NCBI GenBank assembly: GCA_035402765.1
Contig: DAONDX010000003.1
Location: 50,682-114,681 of the forward strand
Source: Candidatus Omnitrophota bacterium
Lineage (GTDB): Bacteria > Omnitrophota > Gorgyraeia > Gygaellales > Profunditerraquicolaceae
Length of the DNA stretch: 64,000 nt
Reading direction: 5' to 3'
The notes below the pieces were generated by a model. That model was not told the origin of the DNA, did not search any database, and saw only the letters and a list, made by a program, of their open reading frames with translations. This document shows positions 5,525 through 44,751 of this stretch, one piece after another (position 1 is the first letter of the stretch; the number at the start of each line of letters is the position of its first letter). The position numbers were made by a program, and so were the translations under genes.

Positions 5525-5647
5525 TAGAATTTTTTGTTTTCTAAAAAATTTTACTTCGAGCGTTTCCTTTGGAGAATATCCAGGCTTAACGAGAAGTAAA
5601 TTAATTCGATCTTAAAGAACAAAAGAGAATTCAAATGCGCGTAATAT

Positions 5648-5936
5648 TTAAGCCGACGAGAGGATTTGAACCCCCGACCCGCTACCAGAGGGGCTCTGCC
5701 CCTATGGCGCTCCTCACTAACGTTCGTCGCTGTTACCCCGAATCCGCGGGGGAAGTTTTCCCCCGCACCCCTTTCGGGTCGGACGTATATTTAAGCCGAC
5801 GAGAGGATTTGAACCCCCGACCCGCTACCAGAGGGGCTCTGCCCCTATGGCGCTCCTCACTAACGTTCGTCGCTGTTACCCCGAATCCGCGGGGGAAGTT
5901 TTCCCCCGCACCCCTTTCGGGTCGGACGTATATTTA
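5648..5936 (-). repeat. two perfect tandem 143-bp units directly 3' of tRNA-Thr; each unit is a ~75-nt conserved module fused to a copy of tRNA-Thr positions 41-73
   Basis: An exact period of 143 bp is seen by eye (TTAAGCCGACGAGAGG at 5648, 5791 and 5934). Each unit contains ...TTCGGGGTAACAGC...GCGCCATAGGGGCAGAGCCCCTCTGGTA followed by GCGGGTCGGGGGTTCAAATCCTCTCGTCGGCTTA on the minus strand. Confidence 0.8.
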
Positions 5937-6009
5937 AGCCGACGAGAGGATTTGAACCCCCGACCCGCTGTTTACAAAACAGCCGCTCTACCAACTGAGC
6001 TACGTCGGC
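5937..6009 (-). tRNA. tRNA-Thr (anticodon TGT)
   Basis: The reverse complement reads GCCGACGTAGCTCAGTTGGTAGAGCGGCTGTTTTGTAAACAGCGGGTCGGGGGTTCAAATCCTCTCGTCGGCT, with anticodon loop TTTGTAA. Confidence 0.85.
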
Positions 6010-19882: not shown

Positions 19883-21214
19883 TTAATTAAGATTCTTCAA
19901 AAATGCGGGGATACCGGCCGCTTCTTTAGGACCGACGATAATTTTGAAACCGGACTGGTCTTCCAGGTCGCCGCTAATCATCGCCACATAACCCGGAATG
20001 ACTAAATTCTTATGCTTAATTATTTCTTTAACCCCGCAGGCGGATAATGATTTAGTAATCGCTTCCGCGTTAAATTTCTCCGCGGCCCAAGCGGTAAGTA
20101 CTGACATCCCTTGCGTATCTACGCTTAAGATATAGGCGGGTATTTTGCTTGTCTCCACCTCTCCTAAAACAGTATAATAGGTTAAAGAAAAATTTGTCGT
20201 AACCAAGAGCGGGGAATCCTGGCTGACCTTACCGATAGAATAAAGTTTAGGATCGATTTGCAGAGGTTTTTGCGGATCAGTATAAATATTTTGCCTTAAA
20301 GTTAAAATCGCCAGAACCTCCCAGGCAGAAAAACCTCTGATCAGAACGATCCCGGCATATTTAGCGATATAAGCGCTTGCTTCCATAGCCTCTTCATAAG
20401 GATCAGTTTTTTCTACAATCGCCAGGCTGGGATAGCCTAATGCGCGATTGGATTTTTTAAGCGCCTGGCGGCGTAACTGGGTTAAATCCCAAATTTTATC
20501 CGTGATGGGTTTTACCCCTGAATCTAAAATCAGATCCTTGACCCCCAAGTTGTTCAATTCTTTGGCCAGCTGGCCTAATTGAACAATATCCTGCGCAACT
20601 ACCACCAGAGGCAGCTGGAATTCTTTAGCGATGGAGGCGATTTGAGTAAAATTATCCTGATTTGCCCCGTAAAGCAAAGGCTTGCGCTTTTGACTGATTA
20701 TTACCGCTTCTTTTAAAGTGGGCAAATCGCTGCTGATCAACATCAGCGGTAAAACGGTATTATCCATAACCAATTTGGTGGCTTGCAAAAACCTTCCGGC
20801 ATCCTTGCTCTGTTCTAATGCCACCAAATTCACGTTAAGCTCCTGGCCGACCCGCTCAAATTTTAATTGATTAATTTTAGAAAGCCGGTCTTTTATTTCA
20901 TTATCACTAAGATCGGCATTAATAATAAATCCCAACCCCGCAGGATTACGGAATTTTTCTTCATGCCTATACATAACCGTTTCGTTACCAATATCAAATT
21001 TTGATTCATTACTGCCTAAAGTAATCAATTTAATTGCCGGCATGGCCTGCTCTTCCAGGGTATTTTTAGCTTCCGGGGAGATAAAGGGACATTTATCGAT
21101 GGGCAGTGTCTTTTTCGCCAGCTGCATGGCAAAAGCCAAACAAGTAGCCAACCCGCATTGACGGCAATTTGTCTTAGGTAATAACTTGTAGATATCCAAA
21201 CCTGAAAGTGCCAT
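19883..21214 (-). CDS. acsC: corrinoid/iron-sulfur protein large subunit (CODH/ACS gamma)
   Basis: 443 aa with an N-terminal 4Fe-4S motif CRQCGLATCLAF...C and an AcsC-like TIM barrel. Confidence 0.75.
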   Translation of the reverse strand: MALSGLDIYKLLPKTNCRQCGLATCLAFAMQLAKKTLPIDKCPFISPEAKNTLEEQAMPAIKLITLGSNESKFDIGNETVMYRHEEKFRNPAGLGFIINADLSDNEIKDRLSKINQLKFERVGQELNVNLVALEQSKDAGRFLQATKLVMDNTVLPLMLISSDLPTLKEAVIISQKRKPLLYGANQDNFTQIASIAKEFQLPLVVVAQDIVQLGQLAKELNNLGVKDLILDSGVKPITDKIWDLTQLRRQALKKSNRALGYPSLAIVEKTDPYEEAMEASAYIAKYAGIVLIRGFSAWEVLAILTLRQNIYTDPQKPLQIDPKLYSIGKVSQDSPLLVTTNFSLTYYTVLGEVETSKIPAYILSVDTQGMSVLTAWAAEKFNAEAITKSLSACGVKEIIKHKNLVIPGYVAMISGDLEDQSGFKIIVGPKEAAGIPAFLKNLN

Positions 21215-21269: not shown

Positions 21270-21953
21270 TTACTTCTGTCGCCGGGTATTATTGATCAAA
21301 CTTGCAAAGTATCCGGCTCCAAATCCATTATCAATGTTAACTACGCTGACTCCCGGAGAACAACCGTTGAGCATCGTCAGCAAAGCCGCCAGGCCGGAAA
21401 AACTTGATCCATACCCGCAGCTGGTCGGTACCGCCACAATCGGCGCTTTGACTAATCCGCTGACTAAACTAGCCAACGCCCCTTCCATACCGGCTACTAC
21501 TACGATCACTTGAGCTTTTTTTAATTTATCAAGGTTTTTCATCAAACGGTGTACGCCGGCCACACCTACGTCATAAAGCTTATCCACCCGATTACCCATA
21601 ATCTTCAAGGTTTGTACCGCTTCTTCAGCCACCGGAATATCAGCAGTTCCGGCAGAAACTACCAGCACTAAACCTTGCGCTAAAGATTTTGGCTTATTTA
21701 AATAGTAACCGATTTTTGCCAAGGAGTTATATTTTAAGGCAGGGATGCTCTTTTTTAAATAAGAAAACGCGCTTTTATCCAGTTTGGTTAAAAGTAAATC
21801 TTGTTTAGCAGCAACTATTCTTTTAGCAATCCCTTTTAGATGCGGGCGTTCTTTACCCGGGCAATAAATGACTTCGGCAAATCCTTTGCGGTTTTCTCTG
21901 TCGGTATCAATTTTCGCAAACCCTAAATCACAGAATCCTTTGCCGGATGTCAT
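21270..21953 (-). CDS. larB: nickel-pincer cofactor biosynthesis protein LarB (PurE-like AIR carboxylase domain)
   Basis: 227 aa with a PurE/AIRC fold (VVAGMEGALASLVSGL...). Confidence 0.7.
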   Translation of the reverse strand: MTSGKGFCDLGFAKIDTDRENRKGFAEVIYCPGKERPHLKGIAKRIVAAKQDLLLTKLDKSAFSYLKKSIPALKYNSLAKIGYYLNKPKSLAQGLVLVVSAGTADIPVAEEAVQTLKIMGNRVDKLYDVGVAGVHRLMKNLDKLKKAQVIVVVAGMEGALASLVSGLVKAPIVAVPTSCGYGSSFSGLAALLTMLNGCSPGVSVVNIDNGFGAGYFASLINNTRRQK

Positions 21954-21957
21954 CGCT

Positions 21958-22269
21958 TTATAAACCCCGGTAAACCAAATATCCCAAAAGGATAATAAAA
22001 ATCAGGGCAAAGATATAAAAATCGTTAAAATAAAAAAAATCGCCGATACTGCTGCCTAAACTTTCAGATTCTCCTTTAGCCGGTCCGGGTTTTAAATGAC
22101 CTTGTTTCTTTTTATATTGTTCGACTTGTTCCTTTTTGAATCTCAAATATACTCCGCCTACCTTATAACCCGGGATGACCCCGCTTTCGGTCAAATCCAA
22201 AACATCTTTTTCCGACACCCCCAGCATAATTGAAACATCCCTGACAGTAAGCATTTTTTCTTCAGTCAT
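21958..22269 (-). CDS. small DNA-binding protein: excisionase-type HTH (HTH_17-like) with a C-terminal transmembrane anchor
   Basis: 103 aa with an N-terminal HTH (MLTVRDVSIMLGVSEKDVLDLTESGVIPGYKVGGVYLRFKKEQVEQY) and a C-terminal hydrophobic helix (FIFALIFIILLGYLVY). Confidence 0.55.
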   Translation of the reverse strand: MTEEKMLTVRDVSIMLGVSEKDVLDLTESGVIPGYKVGGVYLRFKKEQVEQYKKKQGHLKPGPAKGESESLGSSIGDFFYFNDFYIFALIFIILLGYLVYRGL

Positions 22270-22373
22270 TTTAAACTCAAGCGGCCTTGGCTTCCGGTAT
22301 TTTTTTTAACCAGATGCGGTATCCACTAATACGAATTCAGTTTTTATAATTAAATCCCGAAGTTTTTTCCGGC

Positions 22374-22877
22374 TTATTTTGCGATTTTGCCAGAAGCCAC
22401 CCAGGAATCTATCGCTTTACGCTCGAATTTCCAATCATTATTTTCTTTACTGGCCGGAACTTTTCCTGAATTGGCCCATTCCATAATCGAACTTAATTCT
22501 ACTTCCAGATATTTAGCCAATTGTTCGGAATTAAGAAAATCATGCAACATAGTACATTGTCCCTCAAAAACTGCCCCTTCGGCAATATTAAGCTTAGCCG
22601 GATAAATATGCCCCTCCACTATCGCCTGAGGAAGCAGGGTAAGCCTTTCTTTAGCCGTAATTTTCCCTTTGACCCGGCCGCCAATAATAATATTATCTCC
22701 GACGATATCGGCGTTAATTGCCGCAGTAGTCCCGATCGTCAAATTACCCCGGGTATCCAGGTTCCCCTCAAATTTACCGTTGATCCGCAGATTAACCGGA
22801 TCTTTAAAGGTTAAGGTCCCCTGCATAGCAGCATCGACATCCAATGTTTTTTCTTCTAAATTCTTTTTAAATGCCAT
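22374..22877 (-). CDS. bactofilin-domain protein fused to a C-terminal excisionase-type HTH
   Basis: 167 aa. Residues ~20-115 form beta-helical bactofilin repeats (GKFEGNLDTRGNLTIGTTAAINADIVGDNIIIGGRVKGKITAKERLTLLPQAIVEGHIYPAKLNIAEGAVFEGQ). The C-terminus reads SEQLAKYLEVELSSIMEWANSGKVPASK..WKFERKAIDSWV, an HTH_17-like fold. Confidence 0.65.
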   Translation of the reverse strand: MAFKKNLEEKTLDVDAAMQGTLTFKDPVNLRINGKFEGNLDTRGNLTIGTTAAINADIVGDNIIIGGRVKGKITAKERLTLLPQAIVEGHIYPAKLNIAEGAVFEGQCTMLHDFLNSEQLAKYLEVELSSIMEWANSGKVPASKENNDWKFERKAIDSWVASGKIAK

Positions 22878-23313
22878 GTTTACCCTCCTTTGAAAGTGGT
22901 GTTTCTACATAGCGTAAAAGGTATAAAACGAACCAAACGAGTAACGTGGCAAAAGCGGCGATTTTAATAAAACCCACACCAACTGCTAAACCAATCCCTG
23001 CCGCCACCCAAAGGCTCGCCGCAGTAGTCAGGCCCCGGATTCCGTCAGATTCACGCATAATCGCACCGGCACCCAAAAAACCAATACCGGTAACTACTCC
23101 GGCAGCAATCCGCGCCGGATCTAAAGCCACCTGATCTTTATATATATCAAAAACATACAAAGATGTCAACATGATAAGGCAACTGCCTAAAGCGACTAAT
23201 ATATGTGTGCGCAAACCGGCATCTCTGCGATGCACCTGCCTCTCCAAACCGATAAATCCGCTTAAAATTAAAGTTACCAATAAACGCATAACCATTTGTA
23301 AATCTGTAGGCAT
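22867..23313 (-). CDS. mgtC: MgtC/SapB family membrane protein
   Basis: 148 aa matching the MgtC N-terminal domain (LIRLVLAGLLGGLIGLERE-like). The gene overlaps the next gene by 11 nt, so the two form an operon. Confidence 0.8.
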   Translation of the reverse strand: MPTDLQMVMRLLVTLILSGFIGLERQVHRRDAGLRTHILVALGSCLIMLTSLYVFDIYKDQVALDPARIAAGVVTGIGFLGAGAIMRESDGIRGLTTAASLWVAAGIGLAVGVGFIKIAAFATLLVWFVLYLLRYVETPLSKEGKHGI

Positions 23314-23422
23314 CTTCTCCTCCTGGTCTACCTAGACGGCACCGACCTAATTCGCCAAACGGCCGAATGACAGTCCATCTTGTTATGCCGGTGCAATTCC
23401 CTTTAGCTCCGGATGATAGTAA

Positions 23423-24397
23423 TTAAACATTAAGATAAAGATCACTTCGAACGCCACGCTGATAAAGATACCCGCCTAATCCGGCAACCATCGCAGCATT
23501 ATCCATGCATAAATTAAACTCCGGAAAAAAACAGTTCACTCCTTCGGCCTTAGCACAAGCATAGAATTTCTTACGTAATTCCTGATTAGCGGACACCCCT
23601 CCGCCGATTAAAAGCTGTTTAACTGAGTTTTGTTTACAAGCCAGCAAGGATTTCTTAATTAAAACGTTGAAGGCGCTCTCTTGAAAAGAGGCAGCCAGGT
23701 CATTTTTCATTTTGATCCCGGATTTTTTGCCTTTTAGATAATATAAAACCGCGGTCTTTATGCCGCTAAAACTAAAATCCAACTCCCTGTTCATCCCGGA
23801 ACAAGCAAATTTAATTTTATGCCGGTTGCCGGATTTAGCCATTTTTTCAATTAATGGACCTCCGGGATAACCCAATCCCATAATTTTAGCCACCTTATCA
23901 AAAGCCTCCCCGCAAGCATCATCTAAAGTTTGCCCCAAAACCTTAAATTTAGAAAAATCTTTTACATAAAAAAGTGAGGTATGCCCTCCGGAAACAACTA
24001 AAGCTACCGCCGGTAATTTTATTTTCTCATGGCAAAGGTAATTAGCATAAACATGCCCGAAGATATGATTGACCCCCAAAATAGGCCTATTTAAAGACAG
24101 GGCCAACGCTTTGGCAAAAGCCACCCCCACGATCAATGAACCCGGCAACCCCGGATGCGTGGTGACCGAGATTAAATCAATCTGCTCAGGTTTTATTTTG
24201 GCAATTTTAAGCGCTTCAGCGAATACCCCGGCTATGCTTTCCAGCTGCATCCGCGAAGCGATCTCAGGAATTACCCCGCCGTGGCAGCTATGCAATTTCA
24301 GGCTGGTGGCCACGACATCCGCTAAAACTTTTTTTCCATCTTTAACAATCGCCACCCCGGTTTCATCGCAGGAGCTTTCCACTCCCAAAACCATCAT
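23423..24397 (-). CDS. tsaD: tRNA N6-adenosine threonylcarbamoyltransferase
   Basis: 324 aa of the Kae1/TsaD family (VLGVESSCDETGVAIV...HSCHGG). Confidence 0.9.
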   Translation of the reverse strand: MMVLGVESSCDETGVAIVKDGKKVLADVVATSLKLHSCHGGVIPEIASRMQLESIAGVFAEALKIAKIKPEQIDLISVTTHPGLPGSLIVGVAFAKALALSLNRPILGVNHIFGHVYANYLCHEKIKLPAVALVVSGGHTSLFYVKDFSKFKVLGQTLDDACGEAFDKVAKIMGLGYPGGPLIEKMAKSGNRHKIKFACSGMNRELDFSFSGIKTAVLYYLKGKKSGIKMKNDLAASFQESAFNVLIKKSLLACKQNSVKQLLIGGGVSANQELRKKFYACAKAEGVNCFFPEFNLCMDNAAMVAGLGGYLYQRGVRSDLYLNV

Positions 24398-25194
24398 TCT
24401 AGCACCTGCGAAAGTAAAACAAATTTATAACCTTCTTTTTCCATCTGAGGAAGCATAGTTTTTAATACCAGCAGGGTATTCTTACGGTCATGACCGATCC
24501 CCACGGCAGTACCCTGCCTCCTGGCTAAATTCTTCAGCTTTAACAGCTGACCTTTAATATATTCAAAATCATTTTGATTATCCAAAAAAACATCCCGTTT
24601 GGCAAATGGAATTTTCATTTTTTCAGCCAAAATCTGACCCAAGGATGCATTAGTCACAAAACTATCAAAAAAATAAAGTTTCCGTCTTTTTACTTCCGCC
24701 AGCACCAAAGCGCAAGCTTTTTGATCTTCGGTAATCCGCGATCCCATGTGGTTAGATACCCCTTTGGCTAAATTAATATCGCCTAAATCTCGGTCAAAAA
24801 TATCCCGGATCTGACCGGCATTCATCTTGGCAGTAATCGTATCTTTTTCCAGATTATACTTTTCTTTCGGCTCCATCGGCAAATGTAAGATTATTTCGAA
24901 ACCTAAATCGTTTAATTTTTGCATGACCGTATTGGAATTTTTTAATCCCGGTAAAATCGCGCAGGTCAAAGGCTGCCGGATTTGCCCGGCGGCAGGCAGA
25001 TTATTCAAACTATACCCCCAATCATCAATTACAATCGCAATCCGTCCGCGGGTTAATTGCGCCTTTTTAACCAAAGCTTTTTTTACCGGCGGTTTTTTTA
25101 CCGGAGGTTTTCTATGCACCGGCGGCAAAATAAGAGCAATAAATACCAATAAAACAAAAATAATCCCCACCACTTCAAAACTTTTATTTTTCAT
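24394..25194 (-). CDS. divergent polysaccharide deacetylase family protein (YibQ-like)
   Basis: 266 aa with a signal/TM segment and a Pro/Lys-rich linker followed by a deacetylase-like domain (IAIVIDDWGY...). Confidence 0.55.
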   Translation of the reverse strand: MKNKSFEVVGIIFVLLVFIALILPPVHRKPPVKKPPVKKALVKKAQLTRGRIAIVIDDWGYSLNNLPAAGQIRQPLTCAILPGLKNSNTVMQKLNDLGFEIILHLPMEPKEKYNLEKDTITAKMNAGQIRDIFDRDLGDINLAKGVSNHMGSRITEDQKACALVLAEVKRRKLYFFDSFVTNASLGQILAEKMKIPFAKRDVFLDNQNDFEYIKGQLLKLKNLARRQGTAVGIGHDRKNTLLVLKTMLPQMEKEGYKFVLLSQVLE

Positions 25195-25219: not shown

Positions 25220-26497
25220 TTATTTAACCTGCTTATAAATTTCAATCGCTTTCAAAGCTTCCACGGCGCGCATAAGTTGCGTATCGGTTTTATAATTGAA
25301 GTCATTTTTGGCGGGCTTATCGTTCTGTTGCATATTCTGAACTTGATCAAATATTTCATCAGAATTTTTAAGTCCTGTTTCACTAACTTTATTATCCGGG
25401 ATCTTCTTGTCTTCCACCGTAATATCCGGAGTGATCCCTTTACCCTGAATAATTTTACCGGAGGGAGTAAAATAATGGCTCGTAGTTAAGCGCAAAGCGG
25501 AACCGTCGTTTAAAGGTATAACTGTCTGTACTGACCCTTTACCAAATGATTTTTTCCCGATAATAATGGCGCGTTTGTAATCCTGTAAAGCACCGGCGAC
25601 GATTTCGCTTCCGGAAGCAGAACCCTCATTAATCAGAATTACCAAAGGCAAGTTCAGATTAGTATTCTGGTCTTCGGAGAAAAATTCAAGGTCCTGATCC
25701 TTCTGCCTGCTCTTAGTATAAGCCACCAGCTTATTGGGAGGCAGGAATTTCCCAGTCACCTTAACCGCCACATCCAGCAGGCCGCCGGGATTATTACGCA
25801 AATCGATAATCAATGACTGCATCCCCTCCTTGGAAAGAATGCTGAGAGCGTTATTTAACTCCGCCAGGGTATTTTCTCGAAACTCGCTTAAACGAATATA
25901 ACCTACTCCGGACTCCAGAATACGCACATATTTTATATCCGTAATCTTGATAATATCTCTGGTGATTTTAAACTCCAAAAGCTTTTTTTCGCTATCTCTT
26001 AATATCGTAAGATCAACCAATGTGCCGGGCTTGCCGCGCATTTTTTTTACCGCTTCCGTAAGGGACATCTCCCTGGTCAGGGCATCATTAATCTTTACGA
26101 TCCGGTCGCCGGCTTTTACCCCCGCCTTCCAAGCCGGGGTATCTTCGATCGGCGTAATCACGGTGAGTAATCCGTCTTTGATCGTGATCTCAATTCCCAA
26201 GCCGCCGAATTTACCCTGAGTATCTACTCTTAATTCCTCATAGGCTTCCGGATCCATAAACTGGCTATGCGGATCAAGCGACTCCAGCATGCCTTTTAAC
26301 GCCCCATAGATCAAATCCCTGGTTTTGGTCTCATCGACATATTCTTTTTGAACGATGGCCAGGGTATCCGAAAATATCTCTACCTGCTTATACAATTTAT
26401 CGTTATTTTTCTTTTTACTTTCAGAAAAACCTAAACGAACACCCGCCAGTACTAATACAGCAAGTAAAAAAATGAGCACGATATTTTTACGCATCAA
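25220..26497 (-). CDS. ctpA: carboxy-terminal processing (tail-specific) protease, S41 family
   Basis: 425 aa with a PDZ domain and an S41 catalytic region (GSASGSEIVAGAL...KSFGKGSVQ). Confidence 0.85.
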   Translation of the reverse strand: MMRKNIVLIFLLAVLVLAGVRLGFSESKKKNNDKLYKQVEIFSDTLAIVQKEYVDETKTRDLIYGALKGMLESLDPHSQFMDPEAYEELRVDTQGKFGGLGIEITIKDGLLTVITPIEDTPAWKAGVKAGDRIVKINDALTREMSLTEAVKKMRGKPGTLVDLTILRDSEKKLLEFKITRDIIKITDIKYVRILESGVGYIRLSEFRENTLAELNNALSILSKEGMQSLIIDLRNNPGGLLDVAVKVTGKFLPPNKLVAYTKSRQKDQDLEFFSEDQNTNLNLPLVILINEGSASGSEIVAGALQDYKRAIIIGKKSFGKGSVQTVIPLNDGSALRLTTSHYFTPSGKIIQGKGITPDITVEDKKIPDNKVSETGLKNSDEIFDQVQNMQQNDKPAKNDFNYKTDTQLMRAVEALKAIEIYKQVK

Positions 26498-27921
26498 CTA
26501 AGCCTCCGTCTGATTATTTCACCGACTACTTTGGGATTAGCTTTACCTGCGCTTTTTTTCATAACCTGGCCGACTAAATACATCAGCGCATTAGTTTTTC
26601 CTGCTTTAAAATCATCTACGGATTTTACATTTTCCCGGATTACCGTTTCAATCACTGCAGCCAGCTCCTCGGTATTGGATATCTGTTGTAAGTTACCCTC
26701 CTTGATTAAAGCTTGAGCGGTTTTTCCGTTATCAATCATTTGGCTTAATACGTTCTTGGCTGAAAGATGGGAAATATCCTGCCTCTGAACAAAACCGATC
26801 AGGCTGATTAATTCTTTTTTATCAAGCTTAAGCTCATGCAATTTTACTTTTCTTAAATTAGCTTCGGATAATAACGGGCCAATGATCCAATTTGCCATTT
26901 CCTTTTTATCTTTACCCGGGTATTCCCGGATGCACTGTTCCGCAAAATCCGCATCATTTTTCGTGCTTACCAGGATCTTGGCATCAGCTTCAGTTAAACC
27001 GTATTCCTTAATGAAACGCTGCATTTTTTCCTGGGGCAATTCCGGCAGTTGCGTTTTTATCCCAGCGATCATCGCCTGGTCAATAATAAAAACTGTCAGA
27101 TCCGGATCCGGAAAATATCTATAGTCTTTTGCCCCTTCTTTGGTACGCATTGACACCGTAATTCCTTGTTCAACGTCCCAAAGCCGGGTTTCCTGAAGCA
27201 TGACTTCCTGCGTTTCCAGTAATTTAGTCTGACGCTGGACCTCAAAAGTTAAAGCATCCTTAACTCCTTTAAAAGAATTCATATTTTTTAATTCAGTTTT
27301 AACTCCCAGCTCTTTTGCTCCTTGAATCCTCAGAGAAATATTTGCGTCACAACGCAGGGAACCTTTTTCCATATCGCAATCCGAAACATCCAGATATTCG
27401 ATTATACTTTTTAAGCTTGTAAGATAATCAAAAGCCTCCTGAGGGCTGTTTAAATCCGGCTCGCTGACAATTTCTAATAAAGGAATGCCGGTGCGGTTAA
27501 AATCCACTAGGCTGGCTTGCGCTTCATGAATAAGCTTCCCGGCATCTTCTTCTAAATGCACCCGGGTAATCCCGATGCGCTTAGGAGTATCATTAGTGAA
27601 AATGTCTAAATAACCATTGCGCGATAAAGGCAGGTCATATTGCGAAATCTGGTAGTTCTTGGGCAGGTCCGGGTAAAAATAATTTTTTCGGTCAAATTTA
27701 GTATGCTCTTGGATCTGGCAATTAAACGCCAAAGCCAATTTAATCGCGGAATTTAAAGCTTCACGGTTATAAACCGGTAAAGATCCGGGAAAACCCAGGC
27801 ATACCGGGCAAACGTTAGAATTAGGCGCTTTTCCAAAATCCGTAGAGCAGCCGCAAAAAGCCTTAGTTTTGGTGTTAAGCTGCACATGAACCTCTAATCC
27901 AATGACGGTCTGATACTTCAA
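26494..27921 (-). CDS. gatB: Asp-tRNA(Asn)/Glu-tRNA(Gln) amidotransferase subunit B
   Basis: 475 aa beginning MKYQTVIGLEVHVQLNTKTKAFCGC. Confidence 0.95.
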   Translation of the reverse strand: MKYQTVIGLEVHVQLNTKTKAFCGCSTDFGKAPNSNVCPVCLGFPGSLPVYNREALNSAIKLALAFNCQIQEHTKFDRKNYFYPDLPKNYQISQYDLPLSRNGYLDIFTNDTPKRIGITRVHLEEDAGKLIHEAQASLVDFNRTGIPLLEIVSEPDLNSPQEAFDYLTSLKSIIEYLDVSDCDMEKGSLRCDANISLRIQGAKELGVKTELKNMNSFKGVKDALTFEVQRQTKLLETQEVMLQETRLWDVEQGITVSMRTKEGAKDYRYFPDPDLTVFIIDQAMIAGIKTQLPELPQEKMQRFIKEYGLTEADAKILVSTKNDADFAEQCIREYPGKDKKEMANWIIGPLLSEANLRKVKLHELKLDKKELISLIGFVQRQDISHLSAKNVLSQMIDNGKTAQALIKEGNLQQISNTEELAAVIETVIRENVKSVDDFKAGKTNALMYLVGQVMKKSAGKANPKVVGEIIRRRLS

Positions 27922-27961: not shown

Positions 27962-29422
27962 TTACAGTTTAGGTTTAATTTTATGCCAATCCGTATTCTG
28001 CTCGAAAGTATGCGCTACCCTAAAAAGCATTTCTTCATTAAAGGGTTTGGCCATGATCTGCAACCCCACGGGCAGGCCTTTCTTTGTAAATCCGCAGGGG
28101 ATAGAAATCGCCGGTATTCCTGCCAAGTTTACGGATATCGTATAAATATCCGAAAGATACATTTTTAAAGGATCCTGCGCCCGCTCGCCGATCTTAAAAG
28201 CAGGAGTAGGAGAAGTTGGGGCGACAATACAATCAAAATCCTGAAAAACTTTGTCAAAATCCTGTTTGATCAGAGTGCGCACCTTTAAAGCCCGTAGATA
28301 ATATGCATCGTAGTATCCGTGTGACAAAGCAAAAGTACCCAATAAAATCCTGCGTTTAGCCTCCGGGCCGAAACCTTGCGCGCGGGTCATTTTATACATC
28401 TGGATTAGGTTATCAGATGCTACCCGGTATCCGTATTGCACGCCATCAAATCTGGCTAAATTTGAGCTGGCTTCGGCGGTAGCAATAATATAGTAAACCG
28501 GCACAGCATATTCAGTATGCGGCAAAGACACCGGATCGGTAAAGGCGCCCAGAGTTTTAAGCTTATCAATCGCCTCTTCAATGATCGATTTAACTTCCGT
28601 ATCCAATCCGGCAACAAAATATTCTTTAGGAATACCGATTTTAAGGCCCTTGATATCTCCGGTCAGACTTTTAGTATAATCCGGAACTTCCTGATTTACT
28701 GAAGTGGAATCCCGGGGGTCATGCCCGCAGATAATTCCGGATAAAATTGCCGCATCTTGAACATCTTTAGTGATTGGCCCGATCTGATCAAGGCTGGAAG
28801 CAAAAGCAATTAAACCAAAGCGCGAAACCCGGCCATAAGTTGGTTTTAATCCGACTACCCCGCAAAAAGATGCCGGCTGACGGATCGAACCGCCGGTATC
28901 GCTCCCTAAAGCCCAAATCGCTTCATCGCTTGCTACAGCCGCGGCGCTTCCTCCGGAAGAGCCTCCGGGCACACATTCCAGATCCCAGGGATTATGCGTC
29001 GGGCCGAAATAAGAATTTTCACAAGAGGAACCAAAAGCAAACTCATCCATATTCGCTTTTAACGCAAAGATCGTGGCTCCGTTTTCTTTTAATTTGCTAA
29101 TTACCGTAGCATCATAAGGCGGACGAAAACCGCGCAGGATCTTAGAACAACATTCAGTAGTTAATCCTGCGGTACAAATATTATCTTTAATGGTAATGGG
29201 TAAGCCTTTAAGCAGACTTAACGCAGAAGGATTTGCGGCAGAATTTTCAACCTCCCCTACTCTGGCATAAGCCTTAACTTTAGGCTCAGTCTTATGAATC
29301 CGCTCTTGCAGCGAGAGCAAGATCTTTTCAGCAGACACTTCCTTATTTTTCAGCTTAGCCAATAATTCGTGAGCAGTAAATTGGTTTAATTCCATAATTA
29401 TTCTAATATTTTGGGAACACAA
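27962..29422 (-). CDS. gatA: Asp-tRNA(Asn)/Glu-tRNA(Gln) amidotransferase subunit A
   Basis: 486 aa with the amidase signature [12 protein letters not shown]. Confidence 0.95.
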
Positions 29423-29809: not shown

Positions 29810-32800
29810 ATGAGCGCCACGCCGACTAAAGCTAAGTATTATTTAAACAAGCAAGGTGAATTTGTAATTCAAAATTACAATTACGCCAAGCCATTCGCTA
29901 ATTTCTTCCCGGGAATCGCCGGAAAATTCGGCATCCCGATGTGGGTTTTCTATGTTAACCGCGGGCAGTGTGTCTGCAGCTTCGGTACCAAAGATAAAGA
30001 CCGCGCCATCCTGGAGTTTTTCCCGGCGAATAAAGCCTGGGAATTAACTTCTTCCCTGGGTTTCCGCACTTTCTACAAAATTAAAAACGCCAAGTCCAAA
30101 CCAATCTATTATGAACCATTCCATAACGGCTACAGCAATCTAAAATATCAAATTACCAATTCCATGCGGATCGGTTCTGCCGAGTTGATCCTGGAAGAAG
30201 AAAATCGCTCCCTAGGCATTAAAACCCTGGTTAAATATTTTAATATTCCTAACGATACCTTTGCCGGCCTAAGCCGGATTGTCTGCGTAGAAAATACCGG
30301 ACATAAACTTAAATCCCTCCAGATGATTGACGGATTACCCCAAATCATCCCTTTCGGCACAAATAATTTTTTCCTTAAAAAACTCGGACGCACCATTGAA
30401 GCCTGGATGAAAATAGTTAACCTGGAGAATTCTGTCCCTTTTTATAAACTTGAAGTTGACCCGGCTGACCGGCCGGAAGTCGTCCATATTAACGATGGCA
30501 ATTTTTATCTGGGTTTCCATTTCAAAAACCAAAAGCTTCAACTACTTAAACCCATTGTCGATCCGCAAGCTGTTTTTGGAGCGGTAACCGATTTTTCTTA
30601 TCCGGCCGAGTTTTTAGCTAAACCAAAATTTTCATATCCGGCCGAACAGCTAATCCAGGGTAAAACCCCCAGCGCCCTGCTTTTGATGGATCTGGAGCTC
30701 AAGCCCGCTGAACAAAAAATCTTTTATTCAGTTATTGGCCAGGCCCGCGACAGTAAAACCCTGAATAATTCGGTTAAAAGAATCATCGTACCCGGCTATC
30801 TAGATGATAAAATGCGCCAAAACCGGGAATTGATCGAAAAATTAAAAGCTGATATAGCAACTAAAAGCAGCTCTGCCGAATTTGATTTATACGCCGGGCA
30901 AACCTACTTGGATAATATTATGCGCGGCGGATACCCGGAAGTTTTTAAATCCGGATCGGTAGTCTATCTTTATTCTCGTAAACACGGCGATTTAGAACGT
31001 GACTACAATAAGTTTCAGCTACAACCTACCTACCTTTCTCAAGGCAATGGCAACTACCGGGACGCTAACCAAAACCGGCGTAGCGATATCTGGTTCAACC
31101 CGGATATACAAGATGAAAATATTATTTCTTTCATGAATTTAATCCAAGCTGACGGCTTTAATCCTCTGGTAGTAAAACCGGAAAGTTTCCTTATTAAAGA
31201 AAGCGCGGATTTACAAAAACTACTGGAAAACGTAGCTAAACAAGAGGATCTTGACCGGTTGGGCCATTTTTTAAAAAAACCTTTTACTCCCGGAGAACTT
31301 ATCTTTTTCATTGAGGAAAATAAAATTTTGCTCAACACCTCCTATGATATTTTTCTGGATCTGATCCTCTCGGCTTCCTTAAAAACCCAGGAAGCCGAGC
31401 ACGGTGAAGGTTTCTGGACGGATCATTGGGCTTATAATTTAGATTTAATCGACAGCTACCTGGGTGTGTATCCGGAAAAAGCTAACACGCTGTTTTTCGG
31501 AAGAAAAATTTTCTCATTCTTTGATAACGCCGAAATTGTCAGGCCCCGGAGTGAAAAATATGTTCTTTATAACGGGCAACCGCGCCAGCTGCATTCCCTT
31601 ATGCTGGATAATAACAAAAAGGAAATGCTGCGTAAGCGGCTGGCTGACCCGCATTCTTTAAGGACGCTTCACGGAGAAGGCCCGGTCCATTACACGACGC
31701 TAACCGCTAAACTTTTGTGCCTGGCGGCAAATAAACTCGCCTCTCTGGATGCATCCGGAGTTGGCATTGAGATGGAAGCCAATAAACCTAACTGGTTCGA
31801 TTCGCTTAACGGCCTGCCTGCCCTCTTTGGCTCATCAATCTGCGAAACCTTTGAATTAAAACGCCTGCTTATAACGATAAAACAGGCGCTAGAAAAATCC
31901 CCGGTAAAAGAAATTGAGATGGCCGAAGAAATAGCTAAATTTATTGAACAACTTAGCGGCCTGTTTGCGGAAGAAACTTTTTCTTATTGGGACAAAAGCA
32001 ACACCGTCAAAGAAAATTACCGCTATAATATCCGCCTGGGGTTTTCCGGGACCCTGACCAATGTCCCGGTGAATAAACTGCTTGATTTCCTGAAATGCGG
32101 CCTGGAAAAAGTGGAGACCGGCTTAACTAAAGCATTTGATAAAACTAAACACGTTTATAATTCGTATTTTATCAATGAGGTTTCCGATTATAGTATTGTA
32201 AAAGATCACTACATAAAACCGCTTAAATTTACCCAAAAACCTGCTCCGTTATTCCTGGAAGGTCAAATGCATGCTTTAAGGCTTACTTCCGGAGGCCAAC
32301 AAAGTTTAGATCTATACCAAGCGACTAAACAAAGCGCGCTTTTTGATAAAAAACTAAAAATGTATAAAGTAACCGCCCCGCTTGGCGCCATGCCGGAAGA
32401 GATCGGCAGATGCAGGGCATTTAGCCCCGGATGGTTAGAAAATGAATCAATTTGGCTGCATATGGAATACAAGTATATTCTGGAGATGCTTAAAACCGGT
32501 CTCCATGAGGAATTTTACGCCGAATTTAAAAATGTGCTCATTCCTTTTCTAGACCCGAAAATTTACGGCCGTAGCATATTAGAAAACTCTTCTTTTCTGG
32601 TCAGCAGCGCATTCCCTGACAAAAGATTGCATGGAAACGGATACGTAGCCAGGTTATCCGGGTCAACCGCAGAATTTATACATATCTGGTTGATCATGAA
32701 CTGCGGGGCTTCTCCTTTTTCATTGGATGAATCCGGCCGGCTGAATTTAACTTTTAAACCATGCTTAGCGGGATGGCTATTCAATAAAAATGGCGAATAT

Positions 32801-33007
32801 GTTTTTAATTTCTTAAGTCAAATTCAAATAACCTACCATAACCCTAAAAGAAAGAATACCTACGGCAAGAATTCCGCCAAAATCCGTAAAATCATCCTCC
32901 AAAATAAAAACCAATCCCAAGAGATAAATTCCACGGTCATACCTGCGCCTTATGCTGAAGCAATCAGGTCGCGTCAAATCAATAAGATTGACATCTATCT
33001 GGATTAA
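29810..33007 (+). CDS. large hypothetical protein (1065 aa). It has weak, unconfirmed resemblance to six-hairpin glycoside hydrolase/phosphorylase-type proteins.
   Basis: A long uninterrupted ORF on the opposite strand from all its neighbours, with its own promoter and terminator. Motifs such as GNGNYRDANQN and EGFWTDHWAYNLD are reminiscent of (alpha/alpha)6 glycosidase families, but I cannot place it. Confidence 0.5.
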   Translation: MSATPTKAKYYLNKQGEFVIQNYNYAKPFANFFPGIAGKFGIPMWVFYVNRGQCVCSFGTKDKDRAILEFFPANKAWELTSSLGFRTFYKIKNAKSKPIYYEPFHNGYSNLKYQITNSMRIGSAELILEEENRSLGIKTLVKYFNIPNDTFAGLSRIVCVENTGHKLKSLQMIDGLPQIIPFGTNNFFLKKLGRTIEAWMKIVNLENSVPFYKLEVDPADRPEVVHINDGNFYLGFHFKNQKLQLLKPIVDPQAVFGAVTDFSYPAEFLAKPKFSYPAEQLIQGKTPSALLLMDLELKPAEQKIFYSVIGQARDSKTLNNSVKRIIVPGYLDDKMRQNRELIEKLKADIATKSSSAEFDLYAGQTYLDNIMRGGYPEVFKSGSVVYLYSRKHGDLERDYNKFQLQPTYLSQGNGNYRDANQNRRSDIWFNPDIQDENIISFMNLIQADGFNPLVVKPESFLIKESADLQKLLENVAKQEDLDRLGHFLKKPFTPGELIFFIEENKILLNTSYDIFLDLILSASLKTQEAEHGEGFWTDHWAYNLDLIDSYLGVYPEKANTLFFGRKIFSFFDNAEIVRPRSEKYVLYNGQPRQLHSLMLDNNKKEMLRKRLADPHSLRTLHGEGPVHYTTLTAKLLCLAANKLASLDASGVGIEMEANKPNWFDSLNGLPALFGSSICETFELKRLLITIKQALEKSPVKEIEMAEEIAKFIEQLSGLFAEETFSYWDKSNTVKENYRYNIRLGFSGTLTNVPVNKLLDFLKCGLEKVETGLTKAFDKTKHVYNSYFINEVSDYSIVKDHYIKPLKFTQKPAPLFLEGQMHALRLTSGGQQSLDLYQATKQSALFDKKLKMYKVTAPLGAMPEEIGRCRAFSPGWLENESIWLHMEYKYILEMLKTGLHEEFYAEFKNVLIPFLDPKIYGRSILENSSFLVSSAFPDKRLHGNGYVARLSGSTAEFIHIWLIMNCGASPFSLDESGRLNLTFKPCLAGWLFNKNGEYVFNFLSQIQITYHNPKRKNTYGKNSAKIRKIILQNKNQSQEINSTVIPAPYAEAIRSRQINKIDIYLD

Positions 33008-33086: not shown

Positions 33087-33425
33087 CTAACCGATTTGTT
33101 CGCTTATCTTTATAGTCGAGGTAAGGTTAACGTTTAAAGTATGCACAAATAAAATCTGAAAAAAGTTTCCCTGATTAACCGCTAGAATACTCCCCTTAAC
33201 TTTGCAAAAGAAATGCTCCCGTTTTTCCTTGGTATTCTTTTCCTTAATAACATATAAATACGGCTGCGGGTTAACCAACTGATCGGCTTTAATAGGCCTG
33301 ATGATATAAGCAAAATGCCGGCGCACTACGCTATGCACTCCTTCTTTATCAGCAATCTCGGAAGTGGCGATAATCTTACGTCCCCGGTCAGAAAAAGTCA
33401 AATTTTTATAAAGTAGATCTCTCAT
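33087..33425 (-). CDS. hypothetical protein (112 aa)
   Basis: An ORF with no family I recognise, preceded by the 4x tandem repeat array. Confidence 0.45.
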   Translation of the reverse strand: MRDLLYKNLTFSDRGRKIIATSEIADKEGVHSVVRRHFAYIIRPIKADQLVNPQPYLYVIKEKNTKEKREHFFCKVKGSILAVNQGNFFQILFVHTLNVNLTSTIKISEQIG

Positions 33426-33537: not shown

Positions 33538-33725
33538 GTCCACCTGGACGACACCAACGCAATACCACTTAGCGTTGGGTGTATTGTCTACCTAGACGAC
33601 ACCAACGCAATACCCCTTAGCGTTGGGTGTATTGTCTACCTAGACGACACCAACGCAATACCGCTTAGCGTTGGGTGTATTGTCTACCTAGACGACACCA
33701 ACGCAATACCGCTTAGCGTTGGGTA
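33538..33725 (-). repeat. tandem array of four 48-bp units; each unit is a bulged ~10-bp hairpin followed by the near-palindromic 12-mer GTCTAGGTAGAC (the gene-proximal copy varies to GTCCAGGTGGAC)
   Basis: The period is 48 bp (palindromes at 33586, 33634 and 33682; variant at 33538). Each hairpin is CCAACGC-N11-GCGTTGG. The units differ only at one loop position (A/C/G). Confidence 0.8.
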
Positions 33726-44609: not shown

Positions 44610-44751
44610 AACTCCTCCTCATCTACCTAGACGACACCCGCGTAGAGTGCCCACTACTGTTTATAATATCTCCTCGATACTGCGTTAATCAACACACATT
44701 AAGTGCAATTTCAATTCACCCGGAGTGTCTTGAATTAATTTTTAATAAATA

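Follow-up and report, generated by a model that had tools for sequence, protein, structure and literature searches.

Can a polymerising cytoskeletal protein carry its own DNA-binding domain? The question is raised by a 167-residue protein encoded at 22374-22877 on the minus strand of a 64,000-nucleotide stretch (hereafter the window) of contig DAONDX010000003.1, from a Candidatus Omnitrophota bacterium. In this protein a bactofilin domain is followed by a C-terminal winged helix-turn-helix (wHTH) domain. Known bactofilins act as scaffolds for clients that are proteins of their own, such as PbpC, PadC-ParB and BacR, and the Omnitrophota are mostly ultra-small cells. Sequence comparisons indicate that the fusion is conserved across this candidate phylum, where it is encoded together with an MgtC-family membrane protein and a small tail-anchored wHTH protein. 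The reading that we favour, at a probability of roughly 40%, is that the polymer displays an array of wHTH domains at the membrane and, with MgtC and the tail-anchored wHTH protein, tethers DNA through multivalent weak binding.

A bactofilin fused to a winged helix-turn-helix domain

The fusion protein divides into three parts:

22845-22877, minus strand: N-terminal tail, residues 1-11, basic and disordered in the model
22554-22844, minus strand: bactofilin beta-helix domain, residues 12-108 (PF04519, predicted fold)
22389-22538, minus strand: C-terminal wHTH domain of the HTH_17, excisionase/MerR type, residues 114-163 (PF12728, predicted fold)

Both domain assignments, proposed in a preliminary description of this DNA, were upheld by profile hidden Markov models (HMMs) and by the predicted fold. 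The bactofilin profile PF04519 matched residues 12-108 over its positions 3-97 of 98 (88.1 bits, cut-off 27.9, E 4.8e-25) and HTH_17 (PF12728) matched residues 114-163 (37.3 bits, cut-off 27); the excisionase model TIGR01764 reached 19.5 bits, below its cut-off of 28.8. An AlphaFold2 model computed from a 61-sequence alignment (mean predicted local distance difference test score, pLDDT, 83; predicted template modelling score, pTM, 0.60) placed a beta-helix over residues 11-108, with pLDDT 84-94 at residues 21-110 and about 70 at residues 11-20, followed by a wHTH of a1-a2-b-b-a3 topology (a1 117-124, a2 128-137, beta-hairpin 143-152, a3 153-161). When the model was compared with the PDB using Foldseek, C. 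crescentus BacA (2N3D) came first (TM-score 0.84, root-mean-square deviation 2.0) and the T. thermophilus bactofilin TtBac (6RIB) gave a TM-score of 0.77; in phmmer searches the beta-helix also matched TtBac (6RIA) and BacA (2N3D).

The fusion thus resembles the canonical bactofilins (2N3D; 6RIA/6RIB) in its DUF583 beta-helix, found by HMM and in the predicted fold, in a short basic N-terminal tail and in a hydrophobic residue at the polymerisation interface. This residue, F104, is the aligned counterpart of BacA F130 and TtBac F105, whose substitution by Arg blocks polymerisation, and the position is hydrophobic in all 61 family members (29 Leu, 25 Phe, 5 Ile, 1 Met and 1 Val). The tail, MAFKKNLEEKT, is modelled with pLDDT <50. 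Its sequence varies across the family; a hydrophobic residue occurs at positions 2-4 in 51 of the 61 members, with a median of four Lys or Arg among the first 12 residues. It matches in part the global membrane-targeting consensus of bactofilins, MFSKKKK (PMC12448750), and on sequence it resembles such a targeting signal. The difference lies at the other end: canonical bactofilins finish in short disordered tails, whereas the fusion finishes in a folded 55-residue wHTH, joined to the beta-helix by a linker of 3 residues in the clade of the window and of 9-15 residues elsewhere in the family.

The closest relatives of this C-terminal domain, in fold as in sequence, are BldC, Xis and RdfS (6AMA, 4J2N, 8DGL; PMC5859096). 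Foldseek returned BldC (root-mean-square deviation 1.5, TM-score 0.73-0.79), a phage terminase-type helix-turn-helix (HTH), the RdfS excisionase, RacA and Pukovnik Xis, with MerR regulators and CbpM (3UCS) at lower ranks, and a profile of the domain compared with PDB sequences gave BldC (E 0.008), RacA (E 0.016) and Xis (E 0.097).

A homologue search of 5.8 billion proteins recovered 1,797 clusters. The best 120 of these were all 167-169 residues long, carried both Pfam domains and were 86-98% identical to the fusion of the window; the organisms named among them were Candidatus Omnitrophota or Omnitrophica, except for one metagenome-assembled genome labelled Candidatus Pacebacteria. An exhaustive HMMER search of 1.84 billion representatives added about 20 clusters at the 50%-identity level that aligned with the fusion from end to end. 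A profile built from the divergent members found 2,616 clusters at E <= 1e-10, and among the 120 of these that were listed all had both domains and each one with an organism name was from the Omnitrophota. Our literature searches found no paper on a bactofilin-HTH fusion or on a pairing of bactofilin with MgtC, and no paper on Omnitrophota that also mentions bactofilin.

A conserved gene block in the Omnitrophota

The fusion gene lies in a run of minus-strand genes, given here in the direction of transcription with two further features:

27962-29422, minus strand: gatA
26494-27921, minus strand: gatB
25220-26497, minus strand: S41 protease, CtpB-like
24394-25194, minus strand: divergent polysaccharide deacetylase, YibQ-type
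23423-24397, minus strand: tsaD
23316-23372, minus strand: copy of a double-hairpin leader element in the mgtC leader (covariance model R1)
22867-23313, minus strand: mgtC, 148 residues (PF02308)
22374-22877, minus strand: bactofilin-wHTH fusion gene, 167 residues (PF04519 and PF12728)
22357-22372, minus strand: weak terminator-like hairpin right after the fusion stop codon, within the 104-nucleotide spacer
21958-22269, minus strand: gene for the tail-anchored wHTH protein, 103 residues (PF12728, TIGR01764, hydrophobic C-terminus)
21270-21953, minus strand: larB, nickel-pincer cofactor biosynthesis (NF033503)
19883-21214, minus strand: acsC, subunit of CdhD/AcsC type of carbon monoxide dehydrogenase/acetyl-CoA synthase

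The order mgtC, fusion, membrane-anchored HTH gene, larB was found as first described, with the open reading frames at the expected places. The ATG of the fusion gene lies 11 nucleotides inside the 3' end of mgtC and is preceded by an internal Shine-Dalgarno sequence, AAGGAGGG; 104 nucleotides separate the fusion gene from the tail-anchored wHTH gene, whose stop codon is 4 nucleotides from the start of larB. A scan for sigma-70 promoters and terminators returned no more sites than shuffling would lead one to expect; the operon structure is therefore deduced from synteny and from the spacing of the genes.

Synteny was examined in 80 species-level Omnitrophota genomes, some of them recorded under other taxon names. 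The order deacetylase, tsaD, mgtC, fusion, tail-anchored wHTH gene, larB, acsC was nearly invariant in these loci. Median identity to the protein of the window was highest for the fusion (85%, range 73-98), followed by larB (77%), mgtC (75%), acsC (71%), tsaD (68%), the tail-anchored wHTH gene (63%) and the deacetylase (56%), and in 79 of the 80 loci the fusion was the most conserved gene of its neighbourhood. The 11-nucleotide overlap with mgtC recurs in 33 of the related loci, and the gap from the fusion to the tail-anchored wHTH gene has a median of 7 nucleotides in the relatives. The latter gene directly follows the fusion wherever the contig extends past it (78 of 80 loci). mgtC was absent from its usual position in three loci and larB in four (L032, L065, L069 and L071).

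Three deep lineages (L081-L083, one of them CP070655.1, 1.14 Mb) encode fusions only about 50% identical to that of the window. They keep the block of deacetylase, tsaD, MgtC (223 residues), fusion and, directly after the fusion, a small HTH_17 protein, and the genes that follow the block encode a PDZ protein, LarB plus LarC, or ExbB/ExbD; larB is missing from its usual position in L081 and L083. Because the block persists at this identity while the downstream genes change, we take MgtC, the fusion and the tail-anchored wHTH protein as the core. The four-gene operon first proposed therefore stands for these three genes; LarB, although itself securely identified (NF033503 equivalog, 283.8 bits, cut-off 175), falls outside the core and is a neighbour in some clades only.

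The ten genes from gatA to acsC contained no ParB, ParA or PadC domain in profile searches. In the BacNOP-PadC-ParB/ParA system of Myxococcus xanthus (PMC5703909), the likeness to which is that a bactofilin scaffold positions DNA-bound proteins, ParB (a CTPase whose HTH is of the ParB type) binds the DNA and PadC serves as adaptor, each as a protein of its own, whereas here the putative DNA-binding domain is covalently attached and of the Xis/MerR type. The contrast with PadC-ParB that the preliminary description had drawn is supported, since neither a separate adaptor nor a ParB-type gene lies in the cluster. The fusion cluster is not a PadC-ParB-type system.

MgtC and the tail-anchored partner

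The N-terminal membrane domain of MgtC is present (PF02308, residues 11-137, 139.5 bits, cut-off 31.4). NCBIfam MgtC models of 215-231 positions matched residues 6-138 with their first ~138 positions, at scores below their cut-offs, and the 148-residue protein consists of the membrane domain only, without the C-terminal soluble domain of full-length MgtC. In the deep lineages the orthologues have 223 residues and their gene does not overlap the fusion gene; the C-terminal domain has therefore been lost in the clade of the window.

The 103-residue partner was correctly described at the outset as an HTH protein with a C-terminal transmembrane helix. Residues 6-56 match HTH_17 (37.6 bits) and the TIGR01764 excisionase domain (37.1 bits, cut-off 28.8); a 19-residue stretch from residue 81 has a mean Kyte-Doolittle hydropathy of 2.13; and AlphaFold predicts a helix at residues 83-101 (pLDDT 83-93). 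Overall confidence of the model is lower (pLDDT 66, ~60-68 in the HTH), with an a1-a2-b-b-a3 wHTH topology and a disordered linker. RacA, BldC and Xis were the top Foldseek matches of this wHTH and CbpM was also among its structural neighbours; a profile of the partner found no match among PDB sequences.

The plan of the protein is thus HTH_17, a variable linker, the motif DFFYFNDFYI (residues 77-86) and the transmembrane helix, and the small HTH proteins of the deep lineages follow the same plan with a (K/R)DFxYFNDFY motif. In the form DF(F/L)YFNDFY(I/L), this juxtamembrane motif is near-invariant in all 83 related loci, including the lineages with ~50% identical fusions. It lies outside every Pfam model and could serve for specific docking at the membrane interface.

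Two other accounts of the HTH domains were set aside. A recent duplication would not explain them: BLASTP gave no alignment between the two, and profile comparison detected distant homology at 16% identity. Matches to the HTH of the MADS1 (mad1) anti-phage defence system were weak and confined to the domain (38.5 bits, cut-off 80; PADLOC E 2e-4), and further defence genes were absent.

DNA tether or protein adaptor?

In the tethering model that we favour, MgtC, the fusion and the tail-anchored wHTH protein would form a vertically inherited three-gene membrane module of the Omnitrophota. The bactofilin would polymerise on the inner face of the membrane, held there by its N-terminal tail and perhaps by MgtC, to which it appears to be translationally coupled. 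If it polymerises there, a regular array of wHTH domains would be displayed, and this array, with the separately anchored wHTH protein, would hold DNA at the membrane. The contacts would be many, weak and cooperative, as in wHTH domains of the Xis/BldC type, and would need no single high-affinity operator. BldC-type wHTH domains bind DNA as head-to-tail multimers (PMC5859096), as do Xis and RdfS, and assembly on a polymer could impose this mode of binding.

On this view the module would be the counterpart, in one polypeptide, of RacA-DivIVA or of BacP-PadC-ParB. RacA of Bacillus subtilis (5I44; PMC6593407) ties the chromosome to a scaffold at the membrane by means of a wHTH linked to an oligomerising domain, and the likeness to the present case is that a MerR-like wHTH and a self-associating module are held at the membrane. 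RacA uses a coiled coil and a separate scaffold, DivIVA, and keeps the base-reading Arg, whereas the fusion has Glu or Asp in its place. Tentatively, the model can be extended to a single polypeptide that is both cytoskeletal polymer and DNA binder and that, with the tail-anchored RacA-like wHTH protein and MgtC, pins the nucleoid or a specific chromosomal region to the membrane with no adaptor and no ParB, as a minimal bactofilin-based chromosome anchor; we see this as possible.

It is only its fold, its architecture and the analogies that put tethering first. Direct DNA tethering by the modelled domain is plausible given that its nearest structures are RacA, BldC and Xis, and the wing residue K/R150, at the position of BldC Arg47, is basic in 59 of 61 members. 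Several features of the domain weigh on the other side, however. BldC reads bases through Arg30 and Lys26 of its recognition helix, and the R30A substitution abolishes DNA binding; RacA uses an Arg equivalent to Arg30 (PMC5859096). In the HMM alignment the Arg30 position is E133 in the fusion and Glu (40), Asp (16), Asn (2), Ser (2) or Gln (1) across the 61 family members, never Lys or Arg; the Lys26 position holds Ser, Asn, Gly or Ala, and the Lys33 position mostly Asn or Ser. A basic residue at the Arg30 position characterises the relatives that bind DNA and is no part of the Pfam definition of HTH_17. BldC, Xis and RdfS are free-standing, basic proteins with Arg or Lys on the recognition helix, while the fusion domain lacks these residues and is acidic to neutral (family median net charge -1, range -5 to +1, isoelectric point 5.3; net charge 0 in the window). 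On L082, a contig from the Omnitrophota, a free-standing HTH_17 protein is basic, with Lys where the corresponding residues fall. The partner raises the same difficulty: its recognition helix is acidic in the clade of the window (SEKDVLDLTE), and in a profile-profile alignment with the HTH of the fusion its Arg30 position is D25, with Asp in 63, Glu in 8 and Asn in 6 of 78 sequences. For the partner this acidity should not be generalised, because two of the three deep lineages (L082 and L083) have Arg or Lys there. Further, the 3-residue linker in the clade of the window might, judging from the model, hinder tail-to-tail polymerisation, and the geometry between the two domains is uncertain at a pTM of 0.60. 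Some MerR-fold domains bind proteins and not DNA, CbpM (3UCS) among the structural matches being an example. DNA binding by the fusion is thus a prediction from the modelled fold, plausible but unproven, and loss of canonical DNA reading by its wHTH is a serious possibility.

The same features can be read as those of a protein-protein adaptor. Both wHTH domains would then have given up DNA binding, and the fusion would dock on its partner, on MgtC or on another client, as a scaffold of the envelope or of some physiological process. The replacement of the base-reading Arg by Glu or Asp throughout the fusion family, the acidity of the fusion domain and, in the clade of the window, of the recognition helix of the partner, and the presence of CbpM among the structural neighbours all agree with this. 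Moreover, the hydrophobic head-to-tail interface of the BldC type includes a Trp equivalent to the invariant W134 of the fusion, the conserved neighbours encoding the CtpB-like S41 protease and the YibQ-type deacetylase are envelope-related, and the invariant DFFYFNDFY motif suggests a specific membrane partner. We nevertheless consider an adaptor somewhat unlikely: the closest structural relatives (BldC, RacA, Xis, RdfS and the MerR regulators) are all DNA binders, and both the conserved basic wing of the fusion and the Arg or Lys of the partner in deep lineages speak for contact with DNA.

A third arrangement is suggested by B. subtilis, in which BacR (YhbD) is encoded with bacE and bacF and is recruited to the membrane by these bactofilins, which lower its DNA binding (PMC13649987). 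By analogy, either wHTH protein, or each of them, would be a transcription factor silenced at the membrane or on the polymer, which acts on DNA once polymerisation or anchoring changes. The likeness is that an HTH protein is encoded with bactofilins and located at the membrane through them; indeed, the HTH gene always follows the bactofilin gene here. But BacR is a soluble, separate DUF4004 protein that is released from DNA by bactofilin binding, whereas in the present module one HTH is fused and the other anchored in the membrane, and release from a covalent fusion or a transmembrane anchor would need proteolysis, for which we have no evidence. No conserved operator-like sequence was found in the leaders of the 80 related operons, and conservation above that of housekeeping neighbours suits a structural role more than a regulator. 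A switch of this kind is therefore improbable.

The leader element is not a private binding site

The preliminary description had further proposed that the mgtC leader and a distant array share a DNA site which, with the filament-forming binder, makes up a self-contained module. The shared motif was confirmed. The 12-mer GTCTAGGTAGAC lies at 23326-23337 on the minus strand, 12 nucleotides before the mgtC ATG, and occurs three times in a 48-bp array of 3.9 units (33538-33724), whose fourth copy has the compensated variant GTCCAGGTGGAC instead. The stretch common to leader and array extends to 18 nucleotides, GGTG[C/T]CGTCTAGGTAGAC, which the window contains 6 times where 0.02 matches would be expected; in the mgtC leader it occupies 23326-23343, is an imperfect palindrome with 5-nucleotide arms around a GG centre, and is followed by the Shine-Dalgarno sequence AGGAGGA at 23318-23324. 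Another copy, at 44621-44638, stands 1 nucleotide before the Shine-Dalgarno sequence of yebC.

These copies belong to an element of ~57 nucleotides, the components of which are a 9-bp hairpin that occurs in compensatory variants, the mini-hairpin GTCTA-GG-TAGAC and a Shine-Dalgarno sequence. In its extended form the order is ACACCC-NN-CGC, an 11-nucleotide loop, GCG-NN-GGGTGTT, GTCTAGGTAGAC, AAGGAG(G), 5-9 nucleotides and the start codon. Pairing holds in 99.7% of cells over 26 distinct copies and falls to 24-57% with a slid partner; hairpin pair 9-29 occurs as CG (10), AU (7), GC (7) and GU (1), and pair 10-28 as GC (17), AU (8) and CG (1). Several G-U pairs fall on the sense strand, and these, together with the compensatory changes in the first hairpin, are as expected of a sense-strand RNA structure. 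The covariance model R1 scored 29.9 bits (E 2e-6) on the mgtC leader of the window, with a weaker second match at 23375-23418.

Outside the window, a metagenome scan with the 17-mer gave 118 loci, over half of them chance matches in coding DNA of high GC content; selection for the extended element left ~50 contigs that carry it in fixed geometry. Tandem copies are spaced at 47-49 nucleotides, and the last copy abuts the ribosome-binding site where the sequence is long enough. The genes that follow encode DnaK, ClpP, SSB, ribosomal proteins S3, L16, L31 and L35, GlyA, ferredoxin, PurF, PurE, aspartate kinase, a hydrogenase-type large subunit, an OmpA-like protein, YebC and, at one locus (L147), MgtC. 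All together, occurrences were recorded in the window (33538-33724, 23316-23372 and 44611-44730), in L010 (7519-7575) and in metagenome loci within L086-L199.

Among the relatives of the fusion locus the element is sparse. The 12-mer is present in one of the 80 loci, L010, as a complete unit that lies in the larB-acsC gap and whose first hairpin has undergone compensatory changes. R1 found the element in 14 of 83 related loci, directly before acsC in 10 and before mgtC in two (L056 and L078); by the same model the mgtC leader lacks it in 78 of 80 relatives. In orthologous operons the motif is thus not conserved with the fusion, and the idea of a site-plus-binder module did not survive: the 12-mer is missing from 79 of 80 relatives, and unrelated genes in large number have the element in front of them.

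It is accordingly very improbable that the fusion has its cognate sites in the GTCTAGGTAGAC 17/18-mer of the leader and in the 48-bp array. In favour of such sites are the position of the motif 12 nucleotides before the mgtC start, its iteration in the array, its recurrence before mgtC in L056, L078 and L147, and the presence of both element and fusion in Omnitrophota genomes. Yet the loci without the 12-mer have fusions 73-98% identical, the single copy in L010 and most covariance matches stand before acsC, and copies abut the Shine-Dalgarno sequences of DnaK, ClpP, SSB, ribosomal, GlyA, ferredoxin and YebC genes. The G-U pairs and compensatory changes of hairpin 1 fit RNA, and the recognition helix of the fusion lacks the base-reading Arg. 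On these sequence comparisons, the GTCTAGGTAGAC element is not a specific target or private operator of the fusion; it is most likely a general leader repeat forming a structured RNA. Rfam gave nothing at gathering scores on the window and nothing at E <= 1 on four element-carrying loci, and no paper containing the motif sequence was found. The element, apparently a leader or intergenic repeat not described before, is carried by Omnitrophota genomes and by metagenome contigs of untraced origin.

Three further observations concern the array and the mgtC leader. The last copy of the array, with the variant GTCCAGGTGGAC, is followed by GAGGAAG but by no start codon at the usual distance. A 112-residue open reading frame with no Pfam match (33087-33425, minus strand) lies ~115 nucleotides downstream of that copy. 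In the close relatives L002, L006, L010 and L040 a different long palindrome, GGGGACGGTTCTATTTTTC...GAAAAATAGAACCGTCCCC, occurs ~30-70 nucleotides upstream of mgtC, in the part of the tsaD-mgtC spacer that the leader element occupies in the window, and this spacer seems to be an exchange hotspot for hairpin elements.

Other features of the window

Next to a tRNA-Thr gene (5937-6009), positions 5644-5969 hold a head-to-tail repeat of 2.3 units with a period of 143 and 100% identity, each unit combining the last ~33 nucleotides of tRNA-Thr(TGT) with ~110 nucleotides of GC-rich, hairpin-rich downstream sequence. It could be an att-site-like duplication left by integrative elements, or an assembly artefact. 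No Pfam model matches, at E <= 1e-5, a 1,065-residue open reading frame on the plus strand (29810-33007), which is the sole large gene of that strand in its part of the window.

Implications for bactofilins and the Omnitrophota

The leader motif, a widespread structured element outside Rfam and directly upstream of ribosome-binding sites, merits a study of its own. For the fusion, conservation across the phylum is stronger than that of the adjoining tsaD, larB and acsC, and the module points to MgtC as the likely membrane partner of a cytoskeletal element. At 167 residues, the protein is a clonable test case for the question of whether a high-affinity DNA-binding surface can be dispensed with when a filament offers multivalent display. 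With a folded domain of nucleic-acid-binding type on each subunit, bactofilin, a polymer independent of nucleotides, would be linked to DNA or to a client in a new way.

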